In this document: positions 31,631 through 49,774 of the stretch, one piece after another
Layout of the letters: each line of letters starts with the position of its first letter
Position numbering within the stretch: the first letter of the stretch is position 1
Source: a bacterium
Lineage (GTDB): Bacteria > UBA8248
DNA length: 64,000 nt
Assembly: GCA_965261085.1 (NCBI GenBank)
Contig: OZ253442.1
Span: forward strand, 1,056,001-1,120,000
Reading direction: 5' to 3'
Position numbers and translations under genes: made by a program
Notes under the pieces: generated by a model
What the model was told of the DNA's origin: nothing
Databases searched by the model: none
Seen by the model: only the letters and a program-made list of their open reading frames with translations

Positions 31631-31759
31631 GGGCAAGGGGGGAGTGATATGGGCCTCGCCATTTCGCGTGCAATGGGGTTACAATGGGTTTTTCTATCAC
31701 CTCATCGCGCGACCCAAAGCAGTTTATTTCGCGCTGCATCAAGAAAGGCCGCCGGACGC

Positions 31760-32623
31760 ATGTCTTATTCCAAGGTAGTCGAACTCGCGGAGGGAAAGGC
31801 CTACGTCCTCCACAACGCGTTTCCCCTCGATGGCCGGATCAGCGCCTATCCCATCAGTGCGCGCGGGCACAGCGTCTCGAATTGTTATCTCTTGAAAGAA
31901 GACGAGGGCGCGCTCCTGCTCGATACGGGCTATGCGGTTCATGAGGCCGAAATCCTGGCGCAGCTCGCATCCATTCTCGACCCCGAGACGCCGCTGTCGC
32001 TGCTTCCGCTTCGCATCAACGAATTCATGTCGGTGGGCAACGCCATGGCGATCGCCAAGCGCTTCAACGTGGTGGAATGCCTGGCCCCCGTGCCGAAGAT
32101 CAACGAGTGGCTCGAATTCGAAACAATCGACCCGGGTGGTGCGAACAACGGCAATCCCACCCTCCACACCACGCTGTTGAAACCACTCCACCTCCTTGAT
32201 ATCGGGGCGAGACACATCGAGGTCATGAACGCGCCGATTCGCCTCATCAACACCCGCTGGATTTACGATGAGGCCACGCGCACGCTGTTCACCTCGGACA
32301 TGTTCTCTCACATCTGGCAGGAACGCGCCGTCGGCCCCTGGCTGCTGGATGAAGACGATGTGACGACAACCCCCTTTGTGCGCTCGTTCTTGCTCAACAC
32401 GCGCTACTGGTGGCTCGAGGGCGCAAGGACGGATTCCATCCGCAAAGGGATCGCCGAGGTTTTCGAGCGTTACGAGATAGAAACCATCGCTCCGGGCTAC
32501 GGCGCCATCCTTTGCGGGCGTCACCTGGTAGAGCAGCAATTCACCGTGCTCGATGAGGTTTTGGCGGGCCTCGACCGCAAGGTCGTCAAACCTGGATACG
32601 TCGCGCTGGGCCTCGAGAGATAG
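31760..32623 (+). CDS. MBL-fold (FprA/ODP-like) protein with degenerate first metal motif
   Basis: NCYLL...LLDTG, TLFTSDMF, IAPGYG; the HxExxH position reads LRINEFMS. Confidence 0.7.
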   Translation: MSYSKVVELAEGKAYVLHNAFPLDGRISAYPISARGHSVSNCYLLKEDEGALLLDTGYAVHEAEILAQLASILDPETPLSLLPLRINEFMSVGNAMAIAKRFNVVECLAPVPKINEWLEFETIDPGGANNGNPTLHTTLLKPLHLLDIGARHIEVMNAPIRLINTRWIYDEATRTLFTSDMFSHIWQERAVGPWLLDEDDVTTTPFVRSFLLNTRYWWLEGARTDSIRKGIAEVFERYEIETIAPGYGAILCGRHLVEQQFTVLDEVLAGLDRKVVKPGYVALGLER

Positions 32624-32632
32624 GATACATCC

Positions 32633-33394
32633 ATGAGCATTCCGCTGCCCCGAGAGATATCGCCCGGCGTCTTCTGGCTCGGCGACTGCCTGGTCCAGCA
32701 CTCCCAGGGGAAAATCTACCACTCCTACAACGCGGCTTTTCTCGTCATCGGCTCAGAAGCCTCCATACTCGTCGAGACGGGACATCCCAAGGATTTTCCC
32801 ATTATCGAGGGGCAGATGCGAGACATTCTGGCCAGAGGCGGAGGGCCGCTCAAATACCTGTTCCTGACCCACCAGGAAACCCCCCACTCGGGCGGTCTGG
32901 GCCGCGTGCTCGACCAATACCCCGACCTCACCATCCACGGGGACATGTGCGACTACCACCTGGCGTTCCCCCAGCACGCGGATCGCTTCAAGGAAATGCG
33001 GGTGGGAGAGACCATCGACTTGGGGAACACGCAATTCATGGCCGTGGAGCCCGTGATCAGGGACTTGAGGAGTTCTCTGTGGGGGTTCGAGACCGCCGGG
33101 CGCGTGCTCTTTCCCGGAGACGGCTTCGCCTACAGCCACTACCATACGGACGGCCATTGCGGGATGTTCGCGGAGGAGGCCACCTCTCTCGATCTGGTCG
33201 ACGTGCTGGGCGTATTCGCCGAGCGCGCCCTGTTCTGGACCACTTTCACCGACATGAACATCTACACCGATAAACTGGAAGAACTGATAGATGCGTTGAA
33301 CGTCGACGTGGTCGCGCCGACGCACGGCCTCCCGATACGGGACATCGCGCAAACGATGCCCAAGGTGAGGGAAGGCTTAATCAGAGGCGAATAA
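32633..33394 (+). CDS. MBL-fold (FprA/ODP-like di-iron) protein
   Basis: YNAAFL, THQETPH, LFPGDGF, APTHG; no flavodoxin domain. Confidence 0.78.
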   Translation: MSIPLPREISPGVFWLGDCLVQHSQGKIYHSYNAAFLVIGSEASILVETGHPKDFPIIEGQMRDILARGGGPLKYLFLTHQETPHSGGLGRVLDQYPDLTIHGDMCDYHLAFPQHADRFKEMRVGETIDLGNTQFMAVEPVIRDLRSSLWGFETAGRVLFPGDGFAYSHYHTDGHCGMFAEEATSLDLVDVLGVFAERALFWTTFTDMNIYTDKLEELIDALNVDVVAPTHGLPIRDIAQTMPKVREGLIRGE

Positions 33395-33421
33395 GCCTCA
33401 GCGCCGAAACTTCAGAAAATC

Positions 33422-33820
33422 TTAGACGTCCTCCACCAACTCCCACAGCGTGCCCATGGTGCTTTTGGGCTGGATGAAGGCGATGAGGTGTCCGCCGAAG
33501 CCGGGTCTTGATTTCTCATCTATCAACTTGAAGCCCTGCGCCTTCATGTCGGCTATTACGCCCTCGATGTTCTTCACGTCGAAGGCCACGTGGTGGAGGC
33601 CCTCGCCGCGCTCTTCGATGAACTTGGCGAGAGGGGTGCCTTCCTTGATGGGCGAGATGGGCTCGATGAGGTCGCCGCCCAGATCCAGCATGGCCAGATC
33701 GGTCGCGCCGTCGGCCGAAGTCTCTCTCGCGAGCAGTTTCGCGCCCATGCTTTCATACAGAGCAATGGAGGCGTCCATATCCTTCACCGCGACGCCGATG
33801 TGATGAAATTTGTTGAACAT
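33422..33820 (-). CDS. mce: Methylmalonyl-CoA epimerase (VOC family)
   Basis: HHIGVAV, KFIEERGEGLHHVAF, IAFIQPKSTMGTLWELVE. Confidence 0.85.
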   Translation of the reverse strand: MFNKFHHIGVAVKDMDASIALYESMGAKLLARETSADGATDLAMLDLGGDLIEPISPIKEGTPLAKFIEERGEGLHHVAFDVKNIEGVIADMKAQGFKLIDEKSRPGFGGHLIAFIQPKSTMGTLWELVEDV

Positions 33821-34036
33821 ATTCGCGTTTCCTCCCGGTCAGGCGCGGCGGCGGGATTTCCTCCCCCTCGCCGCATCAATGCCTTGAAATTTGATGACCT
33901 GTCTGTTTAGCAGGCTTGCCGGAATTCCACAATCAAACCCGCCGATGCTTGAGAAACTATACTTGGCGAAGCGTTTGTCGTATTCTCGACTTATCAACGG
34001 GAATCATGCGGAGAACATATTCATAAGGAGAAATTC

Positions 34037-34597
34037 ATGGAAGGTCCGATTGATGGACACGGCACCTCCACCGCGCCGGGCGAGCGCGTCATCGACAAGC
34101 CCGAACACCCGGCCGGGGGACTCTCCACCGACAACACCGTCCATACCGAGATGATCGAGGGCGCCTTACAGCTCAAACGCGGCACGGCGGGCGATTTCGA
34201 GATATTCTGCGACGAGGGCGCGGGGATAGGCGGCACGGCCCAATATCCCACGCCGATGGCCTACCTGGCGATGGCGACGGGGTTCTGACTGCTCACCCAG
34301 GTGTCGCGGTACGCGCACATGATGAAAATGGAAATCAAGGGAGCGAGCGTCTCGGTCCGGTTCAAGAAGCTGCTGGGCGGCTCCGTGCTCAAGGGAACCG
34401 TGTTCAACAAGTGGGAGAGCGTGGACACGCACCTGAAAGTCGAATCGGACGAGCCTGCGGACAAGCTCGCGCATCTCATCAAAAACGCCAAGAACGGCTG
34501 TTTCGCCGAGGGCCTCATCACCGAGCCCGTGCCTTTGAACTCCACCGTGGAGGTGAACGGCGAGCCGTTCAGAATCGAAGGGGTCACGGCGGATTAA
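34037..34597 (+). CDS. OsmC-like probable selenoprotein (186 aa, Sec84 at TGA 34286-34288)
   Basis: ORFs 34037-34288 and 34301-34597 are in the same frame; read-through gives PTPMAYLAMATGF-U-LLTQ...NGCFAE, the two OsmC redox positions. Confidence 0.85.
34301..34318 (+). promoter_or_regulatory. Candidate bacterial SECIS hairpin
   Basis: GTG-T-CGCG GTA CGCG-CAC, starts 12 nt after TGA, bulged U, G in the loop. Confidence 0.65.
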
Positions 34598-34622
34598 CCC
34601 TTATATACATGGAGTTTTTTAG

Positions 34623-35075
34623 ATGGAATCCTTCGACGCATCATCCGACATATCCTTCGGCTCACAGCCCGAGCCTGCCGACCTCAAATCCCTCGCCGCG
34701 AGAGGGGTCAAGACCATCATCAACACGCGTTTTCCCGAGGAAGACCAGGGCGCTCTGCCGCCTGCGCGCGCCAAAGCCGAGGCCGAGGCGCTGGGGATGC
34801 GCTACGTGAACATCCCCGTCTCGCCGGTCGAGTTCAGCCCCGATTCGCTGGCCGAGGTGAGCCGCGCGCTCACGGACGCCAAGGCCCACGGGCCCACGTT
34901 CGTCCACTGAAAGGCCACGGGGCGGGCCGGGATTTGCTCGCTGAATCATCTCGCGGATGAGAACGACTGGAGCGCGGGGCAGATGGAGGGGGCCGCCGAC
35001 GCCACCGGCTTCAACTGGCGCGAAGCGCCGCTGGCGCCTAAATACCGTGAGTTCTTCGCGCAGAGGGCCGGGTAG
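34623..35075 (+). CDS. DUF442/Blh-like (PTP-fold sulfurtransferase) probable selenoprotein (150 aa, Sec96 at TGA 34908-34910)
   Basis: SQP..DL..LAARGVKTIINTR..EE, YVNIPV, then PTFVH-U-KATGRAG at the Cx4R catalytic loop; 54 further codons to TAG. Confidence 0.82.
34921..34942 (+). promoter_or_regulatory. Candidate bacterial SECIS hairpin
   Basis: GGCGGGC CGGGATTT GCTCGCT stem-loop starting 10-11 nt after TGA. Confidence 0.55.
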
Positions 35076-35167
35076 TCGCACAGGGGGAGCCGAGCGCCCG
35101 ATACCTTTGCAAGTAATTGATTATACTTACGTTATAACCTTAAGCGCCCACCGGTAATGTATCATTT

Positions 35168-35298
35168 ATTTATCGAAAAACCCCGTGAATTTATCGATAT
35201 TTTCAGAAATTCCTTATTTTCGAACGCGCCGATTCGCTTCGCCATCATACACGCGCACGCCTTGAGTCCAATGACGGCGAATGCGGGGAAATGCGTGT
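35168..35298. repeat. 131-bp dispersed repeat, copy 2
   Basis: Matches 9405-9535. Confidence 0.9.
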
Positions 35299-35516
35299 TT
35301 TTCCATGTGCGAAAAATCCTGAACAAAGGAGAGAAATTGACGCCGGAACGGGTGAGGCGTTTTTGATTTTCGCTTTTGATCGTCATTCGGCAGCGCTTGA
35401 ATGTGGAATCGAGAAGTTCGTTAGAAAGGGGGATCGCGTTTTTCACTGGTCCCCGGATCAAAGCACTCCGTATGACGAGGGAAGGCCACACGCGTCAACA
35501 ATCATTCCCCCCTTGA

Positions 35517-35745
35517 GGGTCAAGCCCGATTGAAGAATGAGGGAAAGCCGGTAGGGGCGGACCCATGTGTCCGCCCGCTCTACCCGAGCGTCCGTCATTC
35601 CGGCGCATGCCGGAATCCAGTGACTTTTTCGCTTTGTCTTTCGTGGCCATTTTGAATCGACGAGGGAGGAAATCCCGCTACTTCGTCCCCTTCGTCGGTT
35701 CTGGTCAACCTTGCGGTTGCCACCAGCATGCGCCGGAATGACGAG
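35517..35745. repeat. REP-like palindrome cluster including an empty IS1182/MITE target motif
   Basis: GGGTCAAGCCCGATTGAAGAATGAG; GTAGGGGCGGACCCATGTGTCCGCCC; CGTCATTCCGGCGCATGC...GCATGCGCCGGAATGACG. Confidence 0.65.
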
Positions 35746-35942
35746 CAAAAACATAAATCAAATAAATCAATCCGACATCGATGCGCCTGAATGCGCTATC
35801 GTATTATAACTATCTGTTTTATTTGTTTATATTTCTTCTTTTCGATTTGAGACCTCTTGCATTTTCGCCACATTCATGCTTGAATGCGCCCCTGTTTGAT
35901 ACCGCTCGTATGCGTTTTGATTACTAATATACAGGAGGGCGC

Positions 35943-37118
35943 ATGCCGAAAAGAAGCGAGTTCAAGCTCCTCAAGCGAGCCGTCGACGCGCTCGAAGTCG
36001 AAGGGAAGGATGCGGTCTTCTGGGACCGGGACCTGGCCGGCTTCGGGGTGCGGGTCCACCCCACGGGCAAGAAGGTCTACGTGGTGCAGTCCCGGGGACC
36101 CGGAGGTCCCAAACGCGTGACGCTCGGCCGGCACGGGGATATCTCGACCGATGAGGCGAGGAAGCAGGCGGCCTCCGTCATCGACCGCATCAAGCGTGGC
36201 GAGGAGCCGAAGCCCGGACCGCCCGAGGCGGAACTCACCGTGGCCGGACTGGCGGAGCGCTTCATGCGCGTCTATGCCGGGGCGCACTGCAAGCCGGGCA
36301 CGGTCGCGACGTATCGCTCCATACTGGAGAACCACGTCCTGCGGGCTCTGGGCTCGATGACGGTAGGCCAGGTCGGAGCAGCCGAGATATCGGCATTGCA
36401 CCACCGGCTTCGCGAAACGCCGAGGATGGCGAACTCCGTGGTCGACGTGCTCTCGCGGATGTTCACGCTGGCGGAGGCGTGGGAGCTGACTCCGCCCGGG
36501 AGCAACCCGTGCCGGGGGTTGCGCCGCTACAGGATGCGCCCTTGTGAGCGGTTCCTCACACCCGAGGAATACCGACGCCTGGGCCGGGTCTTACAGGAGG
36601 CGGAGGGAACGACCTGGCCGCCTGCGGTCGCGGCTATCCGGTTGTTGATGCTGACCGGATGCCGGAGTAGCGAGATACTGAACCTGCGCTGGGACGACGT
36701 GGACCGTACGGCGGGCGAATTGAGGTTGAGGGACACCAAGACGGGCCCGCGCATGGTTCCCATGACGGCGGCCGCCCTGGACGTGCTCGACGCGATCCCC
36801 CGTTCTCCGGGAAACCCCTGGGTGATCCCCGCACAGAAGGGAAGGGGCCGCCTCTCGGACCTCTATCACTACTGGCGGCCCATCCGGGCGCAGGCCGGTC
36901 TCCACGACGTACGCATCCATGACTTGCGGCATTCCTACGCCAGCAGGGCGCTGGCGCTGGGCGAGGGCTTACCCGTGATCGGGAGGTTGCTCGGACACAA
37001 GGAGGTCGCGACGACGGCGCGCTACGCGCACCTGATTCGCGACGCCGAGAAGGCCGCGGCGGTCCGGGTGGGCGAGAGCATCGGGGCCCACATCGTGCGG
37101 AACGAAGATGAGGCATGA
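35943..37118 (+). CDS. Tyrosine integrase with N-terminal arm-binding (DUF4102-like) domain
   Basis: WDRDLAGFGVRV; TGCRSSE, DTKTG, HDLRH, LLGH, TARY. Confidence 0.93.
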   Translation: MPKRSEFKLLKRAVDALEVEGKDAVFWDRDLAGFGVRVHPTGKKVYVVQSRGPGGPKRVTLGRHGDISTDEARKQAASVIDRIKRGEEPKPGPPEAELTVAGLAERFMRVYAGAHCKPGTVATYRSILENHVLRALGSMTVGQVGAAEISALHHRLRETPRMANSVVDVLSRMFTLAEAWELTPPGSNPCRGLRRYRMRPCERFLTPEEYRRLGRVLQEAEGTTWPPAVAAIRLLMLTGCRSSEILNLRWDDVDRTAGELRLRDTKTGPRMVPMTAAALDVLDAIPRSPGNPWVIPAQKGRGRLSDLYHYWRPIRAQAGLHDVRIHDLRHSYASRALALGEGLPVIGRLLGHKEVATTARYAHLIRDAEKAAAVRVGESIGAHIVRNEDEA

Positions 37119-37125
37119 GGGAGGA

Positions 37126-38328
37126 ATGGACATGACGAAGCTCGCATACAGGACGCTCTCGAACCGGATGGTAGGGAAGCTTACGGTCGAAAAAGATACC
37201 GTATTCTGGGACAGGGAGCTCACCGGCTTCGGTGTGAGGGTCTATCCCACGGGGAGTAAGGTGTACATCGCGCAGGCGCGGGGACCGGAGGGTCCCAAAC
37301 GTGTGGCGGTTGGCCGCCAGGGGGTGATCCATGCGGAGGAGGCGCGCAAGCGGGCCGCCCTCATCATCTCCCGGATCAAGGCGGGTGAGGCGCCCGTGCC
37401 CGAACCATTGATACCCGCCGGCGGGCCGAGCGTGGCCGAATTCGCTGCGCGGTATCTCACGGAATACGTCTCGGTGCGGTGTAAACCGCGCACCGTAAAA
37501 CTGGCCCGCTCCGTGGTCCACAGGCACATCGCGCCGGCCCTGGGCAGGATGCCTCTCGCGGCGGTCGAACGCGCGCAGGTGGCGGAGCTCCACCAGAAAC
37601 TGTACGAGACGCCTGCGATTGCGAACGCCGTGGTCGGCGCCCTGTCTGCGATGTACAAACTGGCCGGGGAGTGGGGACTGGTCCCCGAGGGAGTGAACCC
37701 CTGCCGCTCCCTCGTCAAATACCCCGCACGCAGGCGGGAGCGGTTCCTGACGGAGGCGGAGTTTATGCGCTTAGGGAGCGTACTGGACAACGTCGAAGCG
37801 AAGGGCGTCGCGTCGGCTCCCGCGGTGGCGGCGATCAGGCTCTTGATACTGACCGGGTGCCGGAAGTCGGAGATCCTCACCCTTCGCTGGGAAGACGTGG
37901 CGCCGGATGAGAACGAACTGAGACTGCCCGACACGAAGACGGGCGCGCGGGCGGTCTCGCTCTCGCCGGCGGCGGTGAAGCTTCTCGCCGGGTTGCCGCG
38001 CCTGCCCGGCAACCCGTGGGTCATACCCGGCAGGAAGCCGGGCGGGCGCCTGAGCAGCCTCGATTACGTCTGGCGAATCATCCGCGCGCAAGCGGGCCTG
38101 GAAGACGTCCGTATCCACGATTTGAGACACTCCTACGCCAGCCGCGCCCTGGCGCTGGGGGAGTCCCTCCCGATGATCGGGAAGTTGTTGGGCCACAGCC
38201 AGATACAGACCACGGCGCGCTATGCGCATCTGGCGCGCGACTCGGTGAAAGAGGCCGCAGAACGCATCGCCGCGAGCATCGCGGCGGATATCATGGGCGG
38301 AGACCGGGGACCGGCTTCGGTTTCATGA
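37126..38328 (+). CDS. Tyrosine integrase, close paralog of the upstream gene
   Basis: WDRELTGFGVRV; TGCRKSE, DTKTG, HDLRH, LLGH, TARY. Confidence 0.93.
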   Translation: MDMTKLAYRTLSNRMVGKLTVEKDTVFWDRELTGFGVRVYPTGSKVYIAQARGPEGPKRVAVGRQGVIHAEEARKRAALIISRIKAGEAPVPEPLIPAGGPSVAEFAARYLTEYVSVRCKPRTVKLARSVVHRHIAPALGRMPLAAVERAQVAELHQKLYETPAIANAVVGALSAMYKLAGEWGLVPEGVNPCRSLVKYPARRRERFLTEAEFMRLGSVLDNVEAKGVASAPAVAAIRLLILTGCRKSEILTLRWEDVAPDENELRLPDTKTGARAVSLSPAAVKLLAGLPRLPGNPWVIPGRKPGGRLSSLDYVWRIIRAQAGLEDVRIHDLRHSYASRALALGESLPMIGKLLGHSQIQTTARYAHLARDSVKEAAERIAASIAADIMGGDRGPASVS

Positions 38329-38698
38329 CTTCGTCGTCGTAGCGGCCCACGCGCGTCGGCAACGGCTGTTCGGGATCGCATTTGTACGCTCTCTGCGAAT
38401 GCCGAAGGCAACGCCGATATCCCTGGCCGCCGACAAGCATTCCCGACGAACGCCACGACATTCGATCCGAAATAATCGGCGACGGCGGCTATGGTCACCG
38501 ACAGCGCGAGGACCGTCAGCACGGCATTGAAAGCCGATTTCACAGTTCATTCTCTTCTCTGTAAGCGTTTCCTATCACCGGCGTCCTGTCAGGATTTGAG
38601 CGCCGCCGAGAGGCCGAGCCGGGTGGGTCCGGGGCGAACCAGGGAAGGCCCGAGAGGGTTTTCGGGCTTTCCCATCCCATCCACAGGAGGAGATTCAT

Positions 38699-40981
38699 AT
38701 GGCTCAGGTTAAACCGCTTATCCGCTCCATTCCATTGAACCGGCTGGAACTCGCGCCGGAGAACGTCCGCAAGACGCCGGCCGACCCGGCCGCGCTCGAG
38801 GAGCTCAAGGCCTCCATCGCGGCCCACGGTCTGCTGGAGAACTTGATCGTCAGGATAGAGGACACAGGCCATGACCCCGGATCGGGTCCGGGGCAGGCTC
38901 ATGTCGACCGCTGCGCCGTGGTCGCCGGCGGCCGCCGCCTCGCGGCCATGAAAGCGCTCGCCGAAGAGGGGATACTGGACGCGGACCACCCCGTGCCCTG
39001 CCGGGTGATCGGCGCGGCGGAGAACGCCGGGGAACTCTCTCTCGCCGAGAACGTAGTACGTGTCGCCATGCACCCCGCCGACCAGGTGGTCGCGTTTTTG
39101 AAGCTCTCAGAAGCAGGCGTCACCGTGGCCGCGATCGCCGCGCGCTTCGGCGTCACGGAACGCCTGGTCGAGCAGCGTCTCAGTCTCGGCGGCGTCGCCC
39201 CGGAACTGCTAGACGCCTACCGGGCGCAGGAGATGGACCTCGATACCCTGAAAGCCTTCACGGTCACCATCGACCACGCCCGCCAGAAAGCGGTCTGGGA
39301 GCAGGTGAAGGAACAGGGCTACGGGCCCAGCGGCTGGCAGGTGAGGCGCATGCTGACCGAGGAGAGCGTGCCTGCCGCCTCCGCCGTGGCGCGCTTCGTC
39401 GGTATGGAGGCCTATGAGGCGGCAGGCGGTACGCTCACGCGGGACCTCTTCGCGGGGGAGGACGGGAGCGGGACGTGGTTCGACGACCCCGTTCTCCTGA
39501 ACGAACTCGCGACGGAGAAGCTTCGTGCGGCGGCTGACGATCTGACGACGCGCTGGAAGTGGGCCGAGGCGGTACTGGAAGCCGACTGGAGCGCGGTCGC
39601 GGGCTTCGGGAGGATATCCCCCGAGCCGGGGGTCCCCACCGAGGAGGAGAAAGCCGAACGGGAGAGTCTGCGTGCCCGCCAAGACGAACTCGCAGATCTG
39701 GATGACGACGAGTGGACCGAGGAACTCGCCTGCGAGGCCGAAGGGATCGAGTCGCGCCTCCGTACGATCAAAGAAGCCGTGGAAGCGCGGGCCGCGTTCC
39801 GTGAGCAAGATTACGCGATAGCGGGCTGCATCGCCACGGTCGGCCACGACGGCGCGCTCAAGGTCATCAAGGGCTTGGTCAAGCCGGAAGACTTGCCGGA
39901 GCGGACGGGCGCAGGCTTCGAGGGCAATGGAACCGATGCCGGCCGCGTGGATTCACCGGTGATCAGCGAGCCGCTCGCGACGCCCACCGACCCGCGCGCG
40001 AAGGTCCGCGAGGAGACAGGGATCGGAATCGGACTCGCGGACGATTTGCGCGCCGTCCGCACGACGCTCGTCAAGGCGCACTTGTCCGGGGATTTCGAGG
40101 CGGCCTTCGACCTCACCCTGTTCCAGCTCGCACGCGCCGTCTTCAAGGAAGGCTACCGGGCCGACGCGCTCGACATCGCCTTCAGGGAGACCGCCGACAG
40201 GCCGCCGCCTCGGGCGAGCGACGATGACTTCGCCGCCTGGAGCCCGGGCGAGGCCATGCTCGCCGAGCACTCGGGCCTCTCTCTTGGCTGGATGGAGGAT
40301 GAGGACGACGGAGCGGCCTTCACGAAGATGCGGGCGCTTCCCGAGGAGGAGAAGCAGGCGCTGTTCGCGGCAGCCGTCGCGCGCACGCTCAAGGGCCGGC
40401 TCGCCTTCGAACCCGGCGCCCGGCCCGAACTCGAAACCACCATCGCCCGTCTCGATATCGATTTTGCGAAGCATGTGCGCCCGGGCGCCGCGATGTTCTG
40501 GTCGCGCATCAGGAAAGACCGCATCCTCGCCGTGGGGCGCGCGACGCTTGGTCCCGTCTGGGCTTCTGCGCGCGCGAAATACAAGAAGGCGGACTTGGCC
40601 CGCGCGATGGAGGAAGCCTTCGCCGCCGACCCGCCCGCGGGGCTGAACCCCAAAGCCCGGGCCGCCGCCCTCGCCTGGACGCCTCCAGGATTCACGCCCT
40701 TCGATACGGGCCGCACGGAAGAAGCCGGGGAAGACGGCTCGCCGGCAGGTGAACCCGAACCGGATTCCGCTACGGCCCCGGACGCAGTCGATGAAGAAAC
40801 ACCCGATGCGGCTTGCGGCGACACTCCGGCGCGCGGGGAACTCGCCCGGGCGGTCGATGCCCTGAACGCGGTCCCCACAGCGGACGGCGGCCCGAGGGTG
40901 ATCGTACAAGAGATCGGCCCTGTCAACGGCCACGATAGCGGCGAGGGAATCGATATCCCCGAATTCCTGCGCGGCGACTGA
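38699..40981 (+). CDS. ParB/Spo0J N-terminal domain protein (long, ICE type)
   Basis: NVRK, LKASIAAHGLLENL, VVAGGRR, SLAENVVR, HPAD, HTH. Confidence 0.9.
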   Translation: MAQVKPLIRSIPLNRLELAPENVRKTPADPAALEELKASIAAHGLLENLIVRIEDTGHDPGSGPGQAHVDRCAVVAGGRRLAAMKALAEEGILDADHPVPCRVIGAAENAGELSLAENVVRVAMHPADQVVAFLKLSEAGVTVAAIAARFGVTERLVEQRLSLGGVAPELLDAYRAQEMDLDTLKAFTVTIDHARQKAVWEQVKEQGYGPSGWQVRRMLTEESVPAASAVARFVGMEAYEAAGGTLTRDLFAGEDGSGTWFDDPVLLNELATEKLRAAADDLTTRWKWAEAVLEADWSAVAGFGRISPEPGVPTEEEKAERESLRARQDELADLDDDEWTEELACEAEGIESRLRTIKEAVEARAAFREQDYAIAGCIATVGHDGALKVIKGLVKPEDLPERTGAGFEGNGTDAGRVDSPVISEPLATPTDPRAKVREETGIGIGLADDLRAVRTTLVKAHLSGDFEAAFDLTLFQLARAVFKEGYRADALDIAFRETADRPPPRASDDDFAAWSPGEAMLAEHSGLSLGWMEDEDDGAAFTKMRALPEEEKQALFAAAVARTLKGRLAFEPGARPELETTIARLDIDFAKHVRPGAAMFWSRIRKDRILAVGRATLGPVWASARAKYKKADLARAMEEAFAADPPAGLNPKARAAALAWTPPGFTPFDTGRTEEAGEDGSPAGEPEPDSATAPDAVDEETPDAACGDTPARGELARAVDALNAVPTADGGPRVIVQEIGPVNGHDSGEGIDIPEFLRGD

Positions 40982-41070
40982 CCCGCAGCAGCAAACCCCT
41001 CCGACACGGCGCCCCGCAGCATATGCCTGCGGGGCGCTTTTTCGTTTTCACGCCCCATGGAGTCCATGAC

Positions 41071-42792
41071 ATGAACTGCAACCAACATGCTACGAGCAAT
41101 AAACTTCCGGAGCGGATCCGCGCCCGGGTCTTTGAGGGCGCGCTCAGTCGCGTCACGAGGATGTACGCCGCAGGACTCGCCGACGTATTCACCGAGACGC
41201 TCCAGAACAGCCGCCGGGCCGGCGCCACGCGGGTCCGCGTCACCATCGACGCCTCAGAGGAAACGCCCGGCGTCCTGTCGGTCACCTTAGCCGACGATGG
41301 GGCCGGCATCGCCGATCCCGCCGTGCTCCTCTCGTTCGGTGAGAACGGATGGAGTGAGGACCTCGCGCGCCGCGAGGACGCGGCGGGGATGGGGTTCCTG
41401 AGCCTCGCGCGCCGTGGCTGCACGGTTGTTTCCAGACCGCGTTCTGATGGTGGCGAGACGGCCCCGGCTTGGCGCGTCGATCTCACGCCCGCCCACTTCC
41501 TGGGAGAAGAAGAGGCGGAGGTCCTCCCCGATGCCGACGCGCCCAAGCCCCACGGGACGGCGGTCCGCTTCCGGACGGAAGAGGCCCGCGAGGCGATCCG
41601 GCGCACGCTCGAGAACGCGGTACGGCATTACCCGCTCCCGGTCACGCTCGATGGTGAGAGCCTCCCCCGCCGGGCCTTCCTCGATGGCGCCGTCCATGCC
41701 GAGTCCTGGCGGGGCCTCGCCTTCGGCGTCTTCACGGGGCGCAGCCGCTACCGCGACGAGCCGGACTTGAACTTCCACGGCCTGATCCTGGCGGCCCACC
41801 TGCCCACGGTCCATCCCGTAGACGGCCTGGCCTTCTCGGTCCGCGCCGATGTCGGGAACTGTCCCGAACTCGAACTCGTCCTCCCGGCCAGGAAAGAAGC
41901 GGTCGAGACGCCCTTCTTGGATGAGATGAGAGAAGCCGCGCGCACCGCGGTCTACCAGGCGATGGCTAAGGCCGATCCCGCGCCGGTCGTCGCATTCCAA
42001 GACTGGAAGCGCGCGCGGGCGGCCGGGGTCGAACTGCCGGTACCGGCGCCTGCGCTCCGGCCCTGGCGGCCTCCCGTCGCCGATACCGACAACTGGCTCG
42101 CGGGACCAGCACCCGAACCCCTGCCCACAGGCGCGCTCGTTATGGACGTGGACTTTGAGGCGCCCGAAGCCCAGGCGCTGTGGCGCGCCGCCGAACGCAG
42201 CGGAATGTCTCCGCGGCTTTTCGAGACGGACCGGCGGTTCGAAGGCTACGGCTGGTACGACACGCTCCCCCGCGTCACCGGTGTCCAGACCCGGATCGTG
42301 GGCAACGGGGAAGTCCGTCCGCTCGTGGACTACCAAACCCCGCCCGTCGAGACGCCCCCGCGGCCGGACGCAATCCGCGTGAAGCTCGATGTCCAATACC
42401 CGGACGGAACGAATGAAACACTCGCGCTCGACGCCGACCTCGCCTTCGCCGGTGAGGCCTGGGCCTGGCTCTCAGACGTGCGTCCGCTGGTCACGGCCGG
42501 GAGCGCCATCGAACCCGCAGAACTCGCCGGGATCCTGCGCGACGCCTTCTTCTCGCCCTCGGACGAGTCGGACGCGGACAGCTGGGAGACCCAGCGAACG
42601 CGCTTCGAGGAGGAAGCCACCCACCTGGCCATCGGTCTCCTGTGCTCGGAAGAGGAGGCGCTCAGGCGCTCGATCGCAGAGGCCGTGCGCCGCGAACTCT
42701 CCTGGCTCATGCCGCGGGACCGCGCGGTCACCATCACCGTGCGCGGTGGTGAGGTCGGCGTCGTGTTCTCTGCCGGGGAGGCCTCGCGATGA
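41071..42792 (+). CDS. GHKL (HATPase_c) ATPase domain protein
   Basis: ETLQNSRRAGA (N box), DDGAGI (G1), AGMGF (G2), HGT. Confidence 0.78.
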   Translation: MNCNQHATSNKLPERIRARVFEGALSRVTRMYAAGLADVFTETLQNSRRAGATRVRVTIDASEETPGVLSVTLADDGAGIADPAVLLSFGENGWSEDLARREDAAGMGFLSLARRGCTVVSRPRSDGGETAPAWRVDLTPAHFLGEEEAEVLPDADAPKPHGTAVRFRTEEAREAIRRTLENAVRHYPLPVTLDGESLPRRAFLDGAVHAESWRGLAFGVFTGRSRYRDEPDLNFHGLILAAHLPTVHPVDGLAFSVRADVGNCPELELVLPARKEAVETPFLDEMREAARTAVYQAMAKADPAPVVAFQDWKRARAAGVELPVPAPALRPWRPPVADTDNWLAGPAPEPLPTGALVMDVDFEAPEAQALWRAAERSGMSPRLFETDRRFEGYGWYDTLPRVTGVQTRIVGNGEVRPLVDYQTPPVETPPRPDAIRVKLDVQYPDGTNETLALDADLAFAGEAWAWLSDVRPLVTAGSAIEPAELAGILRDAFFSPSDESDADSWETQRTRFEEEATHLAIGLLCSEEEALRRSIAEAVRRELSWLMPRDRAVTITVRGGEVGVVFSAGEASR

Positions 42793-43280
42793 AAAAGCCA
42801 TATACGGTCCAGTGCGGATATACGGCCCACTTCGCCAATACGGTCACCGTGGAAGCGGAGACGCTCGAGGAAGCGCTCGAAAAAGCCATCGAGACCGCCA
42901 ACGCCGATGAGGACTGGCGCTCGACCGGCCATTGCAGCAGGACTTTCGTGGACGCCGTCTGCGAGGGCGCCGGCGCCGATCCCCGGGACACGGACGCGGC
43001 ATGGCCGGTCCCCGAGCGGTTCACCGAGCGGGGCGAGCCGCCGGTCGTCACCCTGACCGATCCCGGCCGGGCGGGCGGCGGCACCATCGAGGTTTCCGGG
43101 GGCCGGGCCCTGCTCCGCTTCCAGACCCCTGACGCCACGATCACGAGCGAGATTTCCGATCCGCCCCATCCGCCCGGCAACAAGCCGCTCGTGACGATCC
43201 GCCGCCGCGACGACGGCGCGCCCGACGTCACCGTGACCGGGGGCCGGGCGCGCGTCCGCATTCTCGATTTCCAACCCTGA
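42789..43280 (+). CDS. Hypothetical protein of the element
   Basis: ATGA-coupled to the upstream gene; codon pattern consistent with neighbours. Confidence 0.65.
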   Translation: MKKPYTVQCGYTAHFANTVTVEAETLEEALEKAIETANADEDWRSTGHCSRTFVDAVCEGAGADPRDTDAAWPVPERFTERGEPPVVTLTDPGRAGGGTIEVSGGRALLRFQTPDATITSEISDPPHPPGNKPLVTIRRRDDGAPDVTVTGGRARVRILDFQP

Positions 43281-43347
43281 CGCCAAACGACACCGGAGCC
43301 TCTCCGGCCTTTCCACGTCCGCCTTTCACGTAGAGGAGAACGTCCCG

Positions 43348-43740
43348 ATGGAACTCATCACACCCGAGCAGCGCGAACAACTTATCGCCAACGGCGCCGA
43401 CCGGGGCGCAGACCACATGCCCGTGGTCAAACTGTTCAATCCGTGCGGCGCCGGGACCTGGCTCGTGACCGAACTCGACCCAGAAGACACATCCGTCGCG
43501 TTCGGGCTCGCCGATCTCGGCTTCGGTACTCCCGAGGTCGGGAGCTTCTCTATCCAGGAACTCGAATCCTTCCGGGGGCCGTTAGGCCTCGGTATCGAGC
43601 GCGACCTGTATTTCGAGGGGAAATTCACCCTCGCCGTCTACGCCGAAGCGGCACGCGCCGCAGGCCGTATCGTCGAACACGGCTCCGAACTCGCCGCCGC
43701 CGCCCGGCGACGGAGCAAGAGCGCCGCCACCTGCGGCTGA
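43348..43740 (+). CDS. DUF2958 family protein
   Basis: PVVKLFNPCGAGTWLVTELDP, FGLADLGFGTPEVG, IERDLYF. Confidence 0.88.
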   Translation: MELITPEQREQLIANGADRGADHMPVVKLFNPCGAGTWLVTELDPEDTSVAFGLADLGFGTPEVGSFSIQELESFRGPLGLGIERDLYFEGKFTLAVYAEAARAAGRIVEHGSELAAAARRRSKSAATCG

Positions 43741-43775
43741 TCGATCCTTTTCCCCTATCCATTCTGGAGAGAATC

Positions 43776-44093
43776 ATGCCCGACACCGTATCCCGAACTC
43801 CGGCCATACATCCCATGGACCCGAGGCGCGGTGAGAGCCTCTCGCCGATGTTCACGGCCTTTCTCTGTTGGCTGCTCGGCTTGCCGCCCATGACGGAACC
43901 CGCAATCACCGGGGTCGCGGTCACGGGGGACAGCGTCCTCGCCGCCACCGATACAGATCCGTTCTTCAACGCGCACATAGGCAGTCTCACTGATTTCGAG
44001 CGCAACATCCGAGGCTGGGGCGAGGCCTGCGGCGCCGATGCCGCAACGATCGAAGACCTCCTCACCAGGCTCCGCAGCGCCGCCCGTACCTGA
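43776..44093 (+). CDS. Hypothetical protein
   Basis: GGAGAG RBS and ATG at 43776; co-oriented with the element. Confidence 0.6.
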   Translation: MPDTVSRTPAIHPMDPRRGESLSPMFTAFLCWLLGLPPMTEPAITGVAVTGDSVLAATDTDPFFNAHIGSLTDFERNIRGWGEACGADAATIEDLLTRLRSAART

Positions 44094-44223
44094 CCCGCAC
44101 TTCTTCGAGCTGCGCCGGGACGAGTTCGAGACCGGCCCGGCCGGGGCGAACCGAGAGGTCCCGGGGGAGTGATCCTCCTTCTGGACGACCGACCCCCATT
44201 CCCCGACATCCGAGGAGACTTCT

Positions 44224-47200
44224 ATGTCGCAAGTCCTGACGGCGGACGCCTGTCCGAACGCCCCCCGCTCCACCCCGCCGACTTCCGAGGCCGCGCTCCT
44301 CGAAGCGGCCAAGGCGCTGCTGCCCGTCCTGGCGGCCGGACGTCCGCTCGACGCGAACGTGCTCAGGGACACCATGACGCGCGCCTTCGGCGCAACCGAT
44401 GCGCAGGGCGCCTGGCTCTGGAAAGACGCCTACGAGGCGGCGGAAGCGGCGGTCGTTCTCTTCCTCAAACGCTACGGGCGGGCCATGCGCCGCCGGGCAG
44501 GGGCCGGACCCGAAGGCCCCGCCGCCATGCTGGCCATGCTGCAAAAACTCTCCGCGCTGGAACCCTCCCACACGAAGCGCTCGCAGGAACAAGTCCGCCT
44601 GCAGCAGTTCTCGACCCCGCTCGGCCTCGCCTACGCCGCGCTTCGGGCCGCCGCGCTCCGACCCGGCGACGTCGTTCTGGAGCCGAGCGCCGGGACCGGG
44701 ATGCTGGCCGTGATGGGCTGGTGCGCGCTCGGGTGTGAGCGCGCGCTCCACCTGAACGAGATTGCGAGCACCAGGGCCGGTCTCCTCGCCCGCCTCTTCC
44801 CCGAGGCGAGCGTCACACGCCACAACGCCGAGGCCATCGCCGATTATCTCCCCGGCGTCCGGGCGGACGTCGTCCTCATGAACCCGCCGTTCTCGGCGAC
44901 GCCGGGCGTCGCCCGCATCCGGCATGATGCGGACCTCCGCCACATACGCTCGGCGTTTTGTGCGCTGGCGCCGGGCGGACGTCTGGTCGCCGTCACGTCT
45001 GCGGGCTGTATGCCTGGGGATGCCGCCTGGAACTCGGTCTTCTCATCCTTTGAGGCGCCCGCGCGTGTCGTGTTCACGATGGAGATCGAGGGGCGCGCCT
45101 ACGCGAGGCGAGGGACCACGTTCGACACCCGTCTCACCGTGATCGACCGGGGCGAGGAGCGCGGGAACGCCGTGATCGATCCCGCTGCCCGGGCGGCGAA
45201 CGCTGAGAAACTTCTCCGGGCCGTCATCGCGGGAGTGCCCGCGCGCCTCGCCACTAGCACCACCCGTGCGACCGTACCCGCCGCCCCGCTTCGCGATCTT
45301 TTCGGCGAGACGCCGGCGCTCAATGCCAAAGAAAGCAAGACCAAGGAGAGGGACGCCGGCAAGACGACATCGAATCCGCAGCAAGATATGGGTCCCGTCT
45401 CGGAACTCGCATACGAGGCGGCCCCGCCCTGCGGCGACGCCGCGGCCATGGGCCCCTACGCGCCCTGGAAGCCGAGTGTCGTGAGCGTATCCGGCGCCGT
45501 CGCGCATCCCACGCCGCTCGTCCAGTCGGCCGCCATGGCCGCCGTCGAGCATCCAAAGCCCTCGCACCGCCCGCTGCTGCCCGAACGCGTCGTCACCGAG
45601 GGTCTCTTGTCGGACGCGCAGATCGAGAGCGTCGTCCTGGCAGGCGAGGCCCACAACCGCCATCTCTCCGCCCGCTACAGGATCGGCGCCGGCTGGGAGA
45701 CCGTCCGCCGCTGCGACGAAGACGATACCACTGCCGAGTCCGTCACCGAGGACGGTGAGGCGCTCTCGGCGCAGGTCCGGTTCCGTCGCGGGTGGATGCT
45801 GGGCGACGGCACCGGGTGCGGCAAGGGCCGCGAGGTCGCGGCGGTCATCCTCGACAACCGGCTCCGGGGACGGAGCCGCGCGCTCTGGCTCTCGGCCTCC
45901 GCCAACCTGCTCGAAGACGCCCGCCGGGACTGGGCCGCGCTCGGGGGCCGTGAGGAAGACGTGATCCCGCTTTCCGGTTACCGGCAAGGGGCCGACATCC
46001 CGCAGGATGAAGGCATCCTGTTCGCGACCTACGCGACGCTGCGCGCGCCGGCCCGCGAGGGCAAGGCCTCGCGGCTCGACCAGGTCGTCGCCTGGTTGGC
46101 AGGCAGCCTCGAGGAAGAAGACCGCCACGGGTATGAGAGCGTGATCGTGTTCGACGAGTCCCACGCCATGGCGAACGCCGCAGGATCCAGGGGATCGCGA
46201 GGCAATATGAAACCCTCGGCCCAGGGACGGGCGGGACTCAGGCTCCAGCACGCATTGCCCGACGCCCGTGTCCTCTACGTCTCGGCCACCGGAGCCACCA
46301 CCGTGACCGGCCTCGCCTACGCGGTGCGCCTGGGACTCTGGGGCGCCGGGGAGACGCCCTTCGAGAGCCGGGGTGATTTCGTATCGGCGATGGAGGCGGG
46401 CGGCGTCGCCGCCATGGAGGTGGTCGCCCGGGACTTGAAGGCCCTGGGCCTCTATCAGGCGAGGGCGTTATCTTATGAGGGGATCGAGGTCGACATCCTC
46501 GAACACGCGCTCACGCCCGAGCAGCGCCGCATCTACGACGCCTACGCCGGCGCCTTCAAGGTCATCCACGCCAACTTACAAGACGCGCTCGAAGCCACCG
46601 GGATCACGCAGGGCGAAGAGACCCTGAACAGGAACGCGAAATCAGCCGCGCTCTCCGCCTTCGAAGGCGCCAAGCAGCGGTTCTTCGGCCACCTTTTGTG
46701 CGCCATGAAGTGTCCCTCGCTCATCCGCGCGGTCGAAGCCGACCTCGAAGCCGGCCGCTCGGCCGTGATCCAACTCGTCTCCACGGGCGAGGCCCTGATG
46801 GAGCGAAGGGTCGCGGAGATCCCGCCCTCTGAATGGGACGACCTATCGATCGACCTGACGCCCAGGGAATACGTGCTCGACTTCCTGGCGCACGCCTTCC
46901 CGGTGCAGTTACAGGAGCCCTTCACCGACGAGGAGGGTAACCTCATGAGCCGGCCCGCCGTCGATGAGGACGGGAACCCCGTGCTCTCCCAGGAGGCCCT
47001 CGTCAAACGCGAAGCGCTGATCGGGAAACTGGCGTCGCTCCCGCCGGTGCCCTCCGCCCTCGATCAAATCGTGCACCACTTCGGCCATGACGCCGTGGCC
47101 GAGGTCACAGGCCGCTCCCGCCGGGTGCTCAGGACCCAAGACGCGCAGGGCGTGCGACTCGCCTTGCGCCCGCGTCCGGCCTCGGCCGGACTCGCCGAGA

Positions 47201-48660
47201 CGGCGGCCTTCATGGACGCGAAAAAGCGAATACTCGTCTTCTCCATGGCCGGGGGCACGGGGCGCAGCTACCACGCCGACTTGGGATCCGCCAACACGCA
47301 GCGCCGGGTCCACTACCTGCTCGAACCCGGCTGGCGGGCCGACCAGGCGATCCAGGGCCTGGGGCGCACCCACAGGACGCACCAGGCCTCGGCCCCCCTG
47401 TTCCGGCCCGTCACCACCGACGTCAAGGGAGAGCGGCGCTTCATCGCCACCATCGCGAGGAGACTCGATTCCCTGGGCGCCATCACCCGTGGCCAGCGGA
47501 ACTCGCAGACCGCAATGGACGGCGAGGCGACGCTCTTCCGCGCCGGCGACAACCTGGAAAGCCCCTACGCCCGGGCGGCGCTCCGCCAGTTCTATGGAGC
47601 GCTCTGGCGGGGCGGTGTCCCCGGCTGGTCGCTCGGGCGCTTCGAGGAGGCAACCGGTCTCAAGCTCACTTACGAGGGAGCACTCAAGGAAGACCTCCCG
47701 CCCATGCCGAAGTTCCTGAACCGCCTGCTGGCGCTTCCCATAGAGGAGCAGAACGCGCTGTTCGCAGAACTCGAATCGCGCGTCGAGTCCAACATCGAAC
47801 AAGCCGTCGAGGCGGGGACCTATGAGGTAGGCGTCGAGACCCTGCGAGCGGACTCGCTCACCGCGGCCGGCAGCGAGACCCTCTACACCCACCCCGATAC
47901 CTGCGCGGCGACCGGCCTCGTCGAGATCCTCCGACGCGACCGGCTCGTGCCCACGACGGCCGACGCCGCGCTCGATATGTCCAGGAAGGCCGGCGCGCCG
48001 GCGCTCGTCGTGAACGCCCGCTCAAAACGGGCGGCCGCCCTCCTCCCCGCGCCCTCGATGATGTTCGACGACGGGGGCGTGCAGGAACGGGTGCGCCTCC
48101 TGCGGCCAGCGGCCCGGGAGGGCATGGCGAGGGCCGAACTCGATGCCTCGAACTGGCGCGAGGCGGAGGAAGCCGAATGGCGCGCCCTCTGGGAGGACGA
48201 GGTCGCCGGCCTGCCGACGCACACCGAATCGCGTTTCTGGCTCGTCACCGGGCTCCTCCTGCCGGTCTGGGACCGTCTGGGCGCCGAGAACATGCGGGTG
48301 CGACGCCTCGACACCGACGACGGTGAAGCGATGATCGGGCGCGCCTTGGACGCAGGGGGCGTCCGGGCCGTGCGCGCCGCCTTTGGTCTCGACGGAGGTC
48401 CCTCTCTCACCTCCGGGGAAGCCTTCGATGCCGTCATGGGGCGCGGCGAGGTACTGACCCTCGCGAACGGCTGGCGCCTCGCGCGCCGCCGCATCATGGG
48501 GGCGCCGCGCCTGGAGATCGAGGGACCCGACGACCGGCACGTCACAACCCTCAAGCGCCTCGGCTGTACGGTCGAGATCGTCTCCTGGAGCGCCCGCGTC
48601 TTCGCGCCAGACGCCGTCGTACTCGCCCGCGTCCTCGAAAGCCGGCCCCTCGCGGGCTGA
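44224..48660 (+). CDS. Methyltransferase / strawberry-notch SF2 helicase fusion
   Basis: QQFSTP, LEPSAGTG, NPPF; GDGTGCGKGR, FDESH, SATGA, QGLGRTHR. Confidence 0.92.
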   Translation: MSQVLTADACPNAPRSTPPTSEAALLEAAKALLPVLAAGRPLDANVLRDTMTRAFGATDAQGAWLWKDAYEAAEAAVVLFLKRYGRAMRRRAGAGPEGPAAMLAMLQKLSALEPSHTKRSQEQVRLQQFSTPLGLAYAALRAAALRPGDVVLEPSAGTGMLAVMGWCALGCERALHLNEIASTRAGLLARLFPEASVTRHNAEAIADYLPGVRADVVLMNPPFSATPGVARIRHDADLRHIRSAFCALAPGGRLVAVTSAGCMPGDAAWNSVFSSFEAPARVVFTMEIEGRAYARRGTTFDTRLTVIDRGEERGNAVIDPAARAANAEKLLRAVIAGVPARLATSTTRATVPAAPLRDLFGETPALNAKESKTKERDAGKTTSNPQQDMGPVSELAYEAAPPCGDAAAMGPYAPWKPSVVSVSGAVAHPTPLVQSAAMAAVEHPKPSHRPLLPERVVTEGLLSDAQIESVVLAGEAHNRHLSARYRIGAGWETVRRCDEDDTTAESVTEDGEALSAQVRFRRGWMLGDGTGCGKGREVAAVILDNRLRGRSRALWLSASANLLEDARRDWAALGGREEDVIPLSGYRQGADIPQDEGILFATYATLRAPAREGKASRLDQVVAWLAGSLEEEDRHGYESVIVFDESHAMANAAGSRGSRGNMKPSAQGRAGLRLQHALPDARVLYVSATGATTVTGLAYAVRLGLWGAGETPFESRGDFVSAMEAGGVAAMEVVARDLKALGLYQARALSYEGIEVDILEHALTPEQRRIYDAYAGAFKVIHANLQDALEATGITQGEETLNRNAKSAALSAFEGAKQRFFGHLLCAMKCPSLIRAVEADLEAGRSAVIQLVSTGEALMERRVAEIPPSEWDDLSIDLTPREYVLDFLAHAFPVQLQEPFTDEEGNLMSRPAVDEDGNPVLSQEALVKREALIGKLASLPPVPSALDQIVHHFGHDAVAEVTGRSRRVLRTQDAQGVRLALRPRPASAGLAETAAFMDAKKRILVFSMAGGTGRSYHADLGSANTQRRVHYLLEPGWRADQAIQGLGRTHRTHQASAPLFRPVTTDVKGERRFIATIARRLDSLGAITRGQRNSQTAMDGEATLFRAGDNLESPYARAALRQFYGALWRGGVPGWSLGRFEEATGLKLTYEGALKEDLPPMPKFLNRLLALPIEEQNALFAELESRVESNIEQAVEAGTYEVGVETLRADSLTAAGSETLYTHPDTCAATGLVEILRRDRLVPTTADAALDMSRKAGAPALVVNARSKRAAALLPAPSMMFDDGGVQERVRLLRPAAREGMARAELDASNWREAEEAEWRALWEDEVAGLPTHTESRFWLVTGLLLPVWDRLGAENMRVRRLDTDDGEAMIGRALDAGGVRAVRAAFGLDGGPSLTSGEAFDAVMGRGEVLTLANGWRLARRRIMGAPRLEIEGPDDRHVTTLKRLGCTVEIVSWSARVFAPDAVVLARVLESRPLAG

Positions 48661-48746
48661 ACCCGCACGTGCGGCCGGCCCGCATACGTATGGCCGTCCG
48701 GCGGGGGGCCGTTATGCCTTCTTCATCATTCAAGGGAGATCAATCC

Positions 48747-49007
48747 ATGACTGCGCACACACTACCCAGGAACCCCGACTACGCCTTCTGCCCGGCCTAC
48801 GGCCCGGGGGACGCGCCGCAGGAGATACGGCTCGTCATCGACGGGATGAGCGGGAGCATCCCCACCGCCCTCGTCGCCTTGACTCTCGAGGACGCACAGC
48901 GATTCTGCGACAGGCTCAACGCCCGGCTCGGAATGGACCGGGAGGCCTGGTCCGCTCTGGCCGCACGCGCAATGGAGGAGACTCCAAACGATGGGAGCGC
49001 CGGTTGA
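48747..49007 (+). CDS. Small hypothetical protein
   Basis: GGGAG RBS; co-oriented with the element. Confidence 0.55.
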   Translation: MTAHTLPRNPDYAFCPAYGPGDAPQEIRLVIDGMSGSIPTALVALTLEDAQRFCDRLNARLGMDREAWSALAARAMEETPNDGSAG

Positions 49008-49362: not shown

Positions 49363-49549
49363 ACCTTATCTCACCCGAATCCCGGACCGGGCGCAAGCCC
49401 GGACGCGGTCCGCGAGCGGTACTCATCGGCCGTGAACCTGCCCGGGAGAGGTAGAGAGAAGCGGGGAGCCGGGCAAATGCCCGGTAGGGAGAGGGAGACG
49501 GTCTCCCGGTCCCGACGCCGGGGACGACAACCCGAGAGGAGGCTGGACA

Positions 49550-49696: not shown

Positions 49697-49774
49697 GGCG
49701 AACCGAGGGGCCGGGGAGAGAGGATTCCCGGTCCCATCAACTGTCATCCACATCACACCACAAGGAGAATCACC

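Follow-up and report, generated by a model that had tools for sequence, protein, structure and literature searches.

Two adjacent genes in the genome of a bacterium of the UBA8248 lineage are each interrupted by a single in-frame TGA. This raises the question of whether these codons end translation or encode selenocysteine (Sec, U) and, in the latter case, what the two proteins do and whether they act together. The genes lie in a window of 64,000 nucleotides (nt), by which we mean the whole stretch of DNA analyzed (positions 1,056,001 to 1,120,000 of the forward strand of contig OZ253442.1, assembly GCA_965261085.1); positions given below are those of the window. Taken as a whole, the data are best explained by two intact UGA-Sec genes, probably co-transcribed, that encode an OsmC peroxidase-type enzyme (gene 1) and a DUF442 sulfur-transferase-type enzyme (gene 2), and we consider this reading probable. 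It draws on recoding signals, conservation, family and fold membership and the Sec machinery of the genome, from which we infer selenium incorporation and both enzyme chemistries. The features of the locus are as follows.

34025-34030, + strand: Shine-Dalgarno-like AAGGAG, 6 nt ahead of the gene 1 ATG (from sequence)
34037-34597, + strand: gene 1, predicted OsmC_like_Se selenoprotein, 186 codons with a TAA stop, in the frame with TGA read as U
34286-34288, + strand: TGA codon of Sec84, gene 1, within U-L-L-T, where the OsmC fold has its first Cys (peroxidatic position)
34301-34318, + strand: hairpin of gene 1 resembling a Sec insertion sequence (SECIS), based on folding prediction and suppressed synonymous change
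34499-34501, + strand: codon of Cys155, gene 1 (N-G-C-F), second conserved Cys of the OsmC fold
34598-34622, + strand: 25-nt spacer between the genes, with a Shine-Dalgarno-like GGAG at 34611-34614 (from sequence)
34623-35075, + strand: gene 2, predicted stand-alone selenoprotein of DUF442/BLH_phosphatase fold, 150 codons with a TAG stop, in the frame with TGA read as U
34908-34910, + strand: TGA codon of Sec96, gene 2, in the H-U-x4-R active-site loop
34921-34942, + strand: SECIS-like hairpin of gene 2, based on folding prediction and frozen codons
34935-34937, + strand: codon of Cys105, gene 2, a clade-specific Cys nine residues past Sec96

The single TGA of each gene falls at a Cys position conserved in the family concerned, codon 84 in gene 1 (context G-F-U-L-L-T-Q) and codon 96 in gene 2 (F-V-H-U-K-A-T-G-R). 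Translation with table 11 splits gene 1 into fragments of 83 and 98 amino acids and gene 2 into fragments of 95 and 30. A preliminary description of this DNA had claimed two adjacent genes 25 nt apart, each with a TGA at its catalytic Cys and with a frame open to a full-length domain. The sequence and the alignment of homologues agree with the first part of this claim; the second is borne out by the loci of the genus, where both genes are full length and carry the TGA at the same codons in 20 of 20 cases. Recoding at genes 1 and 2 is local, not the product of an altered genetic code, since TGA is a true stop for an integrase open reading frame (ORF) in the same window (35943-37118), which would extend to 37259 if its TGA were read as U.

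The TGA codons and the protein sequence beyond them are conserved among relatives. All listed OsmC_like_Se copies keep the TGA of gene 1. Matches to gene 2 were present in 26 of 41 genomes (this one and 40 relatives); among the 48 matches listed, 45 had exactly one TGA and one had two, and the two without TGA were a C-terminal fragment and a weak match. The matches extend to residues 145-150 of 150. Across 52 DUF442 loci with 35-99% protein identity, the codon is TGA in 51 and TGC in one (L104). The pairing of TGA with Cys in homologues, which the preliminary description had proposed as a check together with conservation past the TGA, was found for both genes: U84 of gene 1 aligns opposite the Cys of G-C-V-M-T-Q in PDB 3cje, and Cys occupies column 96 in 43 of 45 aligned relatives of gene 2, including the homologue P0037.

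The taxonomic breadth of the Sec-type DUF442 was surveyed in 51 genomes of this phylum. PF04273, the Pfam family of DUF442, was detected in 36 of them, all belonging to one bacterial family (35 of the 41 other family genomes plus this genome). Outside the lineage, no relative was found with P0062 as query, and P0144 gave four partial matches only, covering residues 4-80 and ending short of the Cys/Sec site. Database records of close relatives are labelled as metagenome-assembled genomes (MAGs) of 'Nitrospinae bacterium', 'Nitrospinaceae bacterium' or 'Nitrospinota bacterium'. In the BSepDB paper, the top ten bacteria by number of selenoprotein genes include MAGs with such Nitrospinae-type names, at 48-54 each.

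The preliminary description had also placed a stem-loop 10-12 nt past each TGA, and both the predicted hairpins and their comparative conservation are in line with it. By folding, the gene 1 hairpin starts 12 nt past the TGA and has the stem GUG-(U)-CGCG / CGCG-CAC with one bulged U and the loop GUA. The gene 2 hairpin starts 10 nt past the TGA and has a 7-pair stem, GGCGGGC / GCUCGCU, with the loop CGGGAUUU. An extension of the gene 2 hairpin by a lower helix was considered and rejected, as it was not conserved (by eye) and is broken by a CTC codon in this window.

Synonymous change was compared between the 12 codons past the TGA and the rest of each gene, using codons with an invariant amino acid. 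In gene 1, 2 of 10 post-TGA codons varied versus 85 of 117 elsewhere (Fisher's test, p = 0.0015); in gene 2 the counts were 4 of 11 versus 53 of 73 (p = 0.03), and as the species compared are kin, both p-values serve as a guide only. In the 51 Sec-form loci, codons 100, 102, 103, 105 and 106 of gene 2 are each represented by one codon (GGG, GCC, GGG, TGC and TCG, respectively) and Arg101 by CGG or CGA only, while other conserved degenerate codons use 2-6 synonyms. The 7-pair helix was paired in 210 of 210 cells (30 of 39 distinct sequences), with six of the seven pairs invariant and one switching between A-U and G-U. In L104, which has the Cys form, no such element is present. For the OsmC family, the helix 18-23/27-32 was 93.3% paired in 25 distinct sequences drawn from 54 copies; its pair 20:30 occurs as C-G (22), A-U (2) and G-C (1), a compensatory pattern with a covariation score above all 500 shuffles. 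The gene 1 hairpin of this window adopts a bulged-U register.

The preliminary description would have been refuted by a genome devoid of the Sec decoding genes. The assembly consists of one 4.27-Mb contig, and selA (579 bits), selB (384 bits), selD (336 bits) and the tRNA-Sec gene selC (75.9 bits, anticodon TCA) are all present above curated cut-offs. The selD gene itself carries one TGA, as do both PF04273 genes of this genome. At each UGA, SelB with Sec-tRNA(Sec) would recognize the hairpin 10-12 nt downstream and insert Sec. Two weaker selD-like matches were also recorded. One, at G000:C1:215011-215745 (95.9 bits, below the 125-bit cut-off), adjoins another OsmC_like_Se copy with a TGA (G000:C1:214244-214645), located 366 nt upstream; the second lies inside the window at 1796-2533 (G000:C1:1057796-1058533; 75.2 bits, below the cut-off).

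Gene 2 was assigned to Pfam PF04273 (BLH_phosphatase/DUF442) with 52.3 bits against a gathering cut-off of 26.1. Its match to the Blh model NF040641 reached 50.1 bits against a cut-off of 625 and covered positions 4-129 of 423 only, with no dioxygenase domain, and no Sec-specific model matching gene 2 was found in NCBIfam. The AlphaFold2 model, built with 45 relatives, had a mean predicted local distance difference test (pLDDT) score of 95.5 and placed U96 between a strand (92-95) and a helix (100-114). A phmmer search of gene 2 against PDB sequences returned 0 matches, so a fold search was needed to find its best structural matches, the DUF442 structures 3gxh and 2f46 (template modelling score, TM, 0.72-0.75), followed by atypical dual-specificity phosphatases.

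In the 45-sequence alignment of gene 2 relatives, His95 is invariant (45/45) and Arg101 occurs in 43 of 45. By pattern match, 37 of the 45 read H-C-x4-R, and gene 2 itself reads H95-U96-x4-R101. Cys105 is restricted to three of the 45, namely the two Sec forms and the full-length Cys homologue P0037, which is 50% identical to gene 2 and reads F-V-H-C-K-A-I-G-R. Cys105 could act with Sec96 as a redox pair; its codon also lies inside the hairpin. A search of 1.84 billion representatives yielded 1469 gene 2 relatives at E <= 0.001, and the full-length relatives among the matches listed were mostly Cys forms with 30-40% identity. Fusion with sulfur-metabolism domains was seen in two relatives at 37% identity, one combining MBL, two rhodanese domains and DUF442 and the other rhodanese and DUF442. 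As the preliminary description had anticipated for standard annotation, public gene calls yield fragments: 53 of 55 close database relatives of gene 2 are 95-amino-acid pieces ending ahead of the TGA, and one 53-amino-acid entry is the post-TGA piece, called separately.

On this reading, gene 2 is a cytoplasmic single-domain DUF442 protein with a fold like that of protein tyrosine phosphatases (PTPs) and an H-U-x4-R loop. By analogy with Cys-type members of the family, transfer of sulfane sulfur (or selenium) via Sec96 is its most likely chemistry, the chief alternative being a phosphatase- or ArsC-type function. Sec96 would be the nucleophile carrying the transferred atom, and the enzyme may represent a selenium version of the Cys-dependent rhodanese-type activity of DUF442 domains. 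Such activity was measured for the DUF442 domain of Xylella Blh (PMC5823870) and for that of the C. pinatubonensis sulfide:quinone oxidoreductase (SQR), where it was abolished by C94S (PMC9163753). These assays uphold the earlier claim that DUF442 domains act as sulfurtransferases.

Gene 1 matched Pfam OsmC with 48 bits (cut-off 27.5) and the NCBIfam family NF041052, OsmC_like_Se ('OsmC-related (seleno)protein'), with 163.9 bits (cut-off 95). In addition to the pairing of U84 described above, its N-G-C-F aligned opposite K-K-G-C-F of PDB 3cje, which contains the second Cys. Its product would be an OsmC-fold hydroperoxide or thiol oxidoreductase in which Sec84 replaces the first active-site Cys. 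By analogy with the OsmC/Ohr family, Cys155 is the probable resolving residue, and in the proposed catalytic cycle oxidized Sec84 would most likely be resolved by Cys155 as a selenenyl-sulfide.

All 42 genomes of the bacterial family contain OsmC_like_Se, at 2-11 copies per genome, with one TGA in every copy listed. Some copies are arranged in tandem (e.g., G041:C69:5634-6653). The genome studied here contains three copies above the cut-off, each with one TGA, and a weaker fourth OsmC-family ORF (G000:C1:4155008-4155400; one in-frame TGA, 48.8 bits against NF041052), which may belong to a different Sec-OsmC subfamily. Gene 1 thus has several OsmC_like_Se paralogs and is a member of an already known family. 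The preliminary description had likewise taken OsmC-like selenoproteins as known, and its view is confirmed by the NF041052 match and by published tables. The UxxT motif appears under OsmC-like selenoproteins in the 2005 paper on the Sargasso Sea (Zhang, Fomenko and Gladyshev, PMC1088965) and is tabulated in a 2022 review and a 2026 review (PMC13188914).

Public sequencing data were consistent with intact TGA codons and suggestive of joint transcription. Contigs of four runs, comprising three RNA libraries from two studies and X2, a run of unrecorded library type used as DNA comparison, cover both TGA sites with no differences; TGC or TGT in reads, which would have spoken against the preliminary description, appeared in none of them. 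The RNA-library contigs span 34008-34442, 34563-35085, 34493-34753, 34507-34728 and 34754-35149. These contigs cross from gene 1 into gene 2 (X16 record 6, X17 record 10) and end close to the limits of the pair, and the interval 33900-34007 is in no RNA-library contig but is covered by X2. This pattern hints weakly at a single transcription unit. A terminator scan found no terminator-like site between gene 1 and gene 2, and a sigma-70 promoter scan of 33300-36000 returned 0 sites. Genes 1 and 2 are probably transcribed together.

Several observations weigh against the two-selenoprotein reading. For single sequences, hairpin stability was not above that of shuffles (z = -0.76, +0.59, +0.09 and +0.67), so that thermodynamics alone does no better than chance; the comparative data do beat chance. 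The gene 2 helix, whose pairs are invariant or alternate between A-U and G-U, offers no two-sided covariation, and its conservation could in part be accounted for by the G-R-A-G protein motif, although the synonymous sites are frozen too. An Rfam scan of 33800-35300 returned no SECIS family and one chance-level small RNA match only. RNA-library contigs can contain DNA, and a two-gene contig does not prove one transcript. As to function, gene 2 scored 50.6 bits with the sulfur transferase model TIGR01244, below the cut-off of 85.85, and is not a member by that model. Profile searches of this genome found no clear SQR (best 26 bits) and no Blh or persulfide dioxygenase (PDO) above the cut-off; the classical sulfide-oxidation context is therefore missing and the usual DUF442 partners are not evident.

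A wider proposal adds to the two-selenoprotein reading that the Sec-type DUF442 is an uncatalogued family acting as a Se-S/Se-Se carrier with Cys105 as partner, recruited in this genus next to the OsmC-Sec peroxidase as a two-selenoprotein unit that would link peroxide handling with persulfide or selenium handling in an organism without the usual SQR/PDO route. In this full form we regard it as doubtful. The preliminary description had inferred a coupled Sec-based peroxide/persulfide (or selenium) relay. If such a relay were obligate, the DUF442-Sec protein would either hand sulfane sulfur (or selenium) on to its OsmC-Sec neighbour or re-reduce that protein. The two genes are on the same strand, 25 nt apart, with an uninterrupted spacer as judged by the terminator scan and a junction bridged by RNA-library contigs, and one genus keeps them side by side in 20 of 20 loci (type-A loci: 20 of 21), all of which fits a relay. 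However, in the exceptional species of the same genus the OsmC_like_Se copy lies ~6.9 kb upstream of the DUF442-Sec gene, and no OsmC gene was found within ~2.5 kb of the Sec-form DUF442 gene in any of 14 loci from other genera of the family (0/14). The second DUF442-Sec paralog of this genome has no OsmC neighbour either, and most of the 2-11 OsmC_like_Se copies per genome are located elsewhere.

Neighbourhood conservation, another check proposed in the preliminary description, held within the genus and failed in other genera. Given the 0/14 adjacency and the presence of multiple OsmC_like_Se copies in all family genomes, the adjacency is a genus-level trait, not an ancient linkage. Together with the paralogs and the failure to find SQR or PDO, this leaves the relay unsupported as originally stated, and we consider an obligate one unlikely. 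Adjacency would probably provide co-expression in redox defence instead of an obligatory two-protein relay.

In other genera, and at the second paralog of this genus, the DUF442-Sec gene lies directly downstream of a Transglut_core2 gene (PF13369, SirB1-like), with ilvD on the other side; each of these neighbours occurs in 17 of 20 loci examined. Transglut_core2 may be an older functional partner of the DUF442-Sec protein. The spacing was recorded as ~24 nt, with the SirB1-like gene upstream (L033:619-1461, equivalents in L073-L106).

Other neighbours were noted on both sides of the pair. Upstream, at 31649-33394, lie genes for a 324-amino-acid protein that matches no Pfam or NCBIfam model and, after it, a 253-amino-acid MBL-fold protein whose only resemblance is to the flavorubredoxin di-iron domain (43 bits); most loci of the genus keep these two ahead of the selenoprotein pair. 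Immediately past gene 2, blastn-short detected short dispersed repeats at 35136-35225 (up to ~77 genome matches) and 35586-35645 (~45); in run X2, the summed contig depth over the former was very high and loose ends were numerous. Close relatives remain syntenic up to ~35202. Two tandem tyrosine-integrase genes (35943-38328), found in none of the related loci, open a stretch at ~36000-50000 with 66-71% G+C, compared with 56-60% in its flanks. The integrase stretch is probably a strain-specific integrated island beside the selenoprotein pair.

For the chemistry of gene 2, the alternative to sulfur transfer is a PTP-fold phosphatase- or arsenate-reductase-type enzyme with a Sec nucleophile. Behind the two DUF442 structures, the fold search indeed ranked PTPs and dual-specificity phosphatases; weaker Pfam matches to PTP-NADK and PTP-SAK were obtained, and Cys105 could play the back-door or resolving part that such a Cys has in ArsC and in redox-regulated phosphatases. 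However, classical PTP and dual-specificity phosphatase loops read C-x5-R, and gene 2 and the relatives matching the pattern have C/U-x4-R, which departs from the classical PTP loop. Asp was present in only three of 45 relatives at one candidate general-acid column (residue 67), a column of uncertain equivalence to the general-acid loop. Fusions with rhodanese and MBL domains occur among close relatives, and the DUF442 domains assayed in PMC5823870 and PMC9163753 are sulfurtransferases. We therefore judge a phosphatase-type role quite improbable and retain sulfur-transfer chemistry for gene 2.

The remaining explanation, in which the TGAs are real stops in pseudogenes or short ORFs, or else assembly errors, agrees with the public gene callers that end gene 2 relatives at residue 95, but it is already contradicted by the data and has next to no chance of being correct, given 51 loci of many independent assemblies that share the position of the TGA, protein conservation on to the C-terminus, a post-TGA part that folds in the model as essential helices of the domain, contigs of four runs that keep the TGA, and complete Sec machinery in the genome.

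The Sec-type DUF442 was not found in the selenoprotein literature searched, a scope that leaves out the 111-family list of BSepDB and Haft and Tolstoy 2025. In the text of the 2026 review (PMC13188914) there were 0 occurrences of PF04273, DUF442, TIGR01244, tyrosine, Blh and phosphatase, and in the 2022 review 0 occurrences of phosphatase. Gene 2 is thus apparently an uncatalogued Sec form of DUF442.

Gene 2 would add a further enzyme fold, the PTP-like DUF442, to those in which catalytic Cys is replaced by Sec, and since public gene calls cut it to a 95-residue fragment, it is missed by selenoproteome counts and annotation pipelines. Together with P0037, its 50%-identical Cys form, it would provide a natural Sec/Cys pair for studying the role of selenium in a sulfur-transfer active site. 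Gene 1 contributes nothing new beyond the extent of the family expansion in this lineage, and no general principle of Sec decoding is changed by either gene.

The bacterial SECIS of the E. coli fdhF type is a hairpin ~10-12 nt past the UGA with apical-loop G residues ~20 nt from the UGA. Both hairpins described here resemble this type in their start at 10-12 nt past the UGA and in their apical-loop G, and that of gene 1 also in its bulged U, but their sequences differ from it. Compared with the OsmC-like selenoprotein family, gene 1 has the same UxxT motif and the distal Cys in N-G-C-F, and nothing essential is different. Its local features are a conserved 33-residue N-terminal extension ahead of the NF041052 model start and a strong expansion of paralogs in this bacterial family.

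Gene 2 shares the Pfam family, the fold and the position of the H-C-x4-R loop with Cys-type DUF442 proteins (Xylella Blh, C. pinatubonensis SQR; structures 3gxh and 2f46), and the catalytic C94 of the SQR-fused domain corresponds by motif to Sec96. In contrast to these proteins, gene 2 has Sec in place of Cys, stands alone with 150 amino acids and no ETHE1/PDO or SQR fusion, carries the extra clade-specific Cys105 and scores under the TIGR01244 and NF040641 cut-offs. By analogy of the active site, its nearest functional counterpart among listed selenoproteins is the group of rhodanese-like domain selenoproteins. Forms 1-5 of this group, as listed in PMC13188914, likewise have Sec for the catalytic Cys in a short Cys-Arg loop of sulfur-transferase type; however, their PF00581 rhodanese fold is unrelated to the PTP-like PF04273 fold of gene 2.

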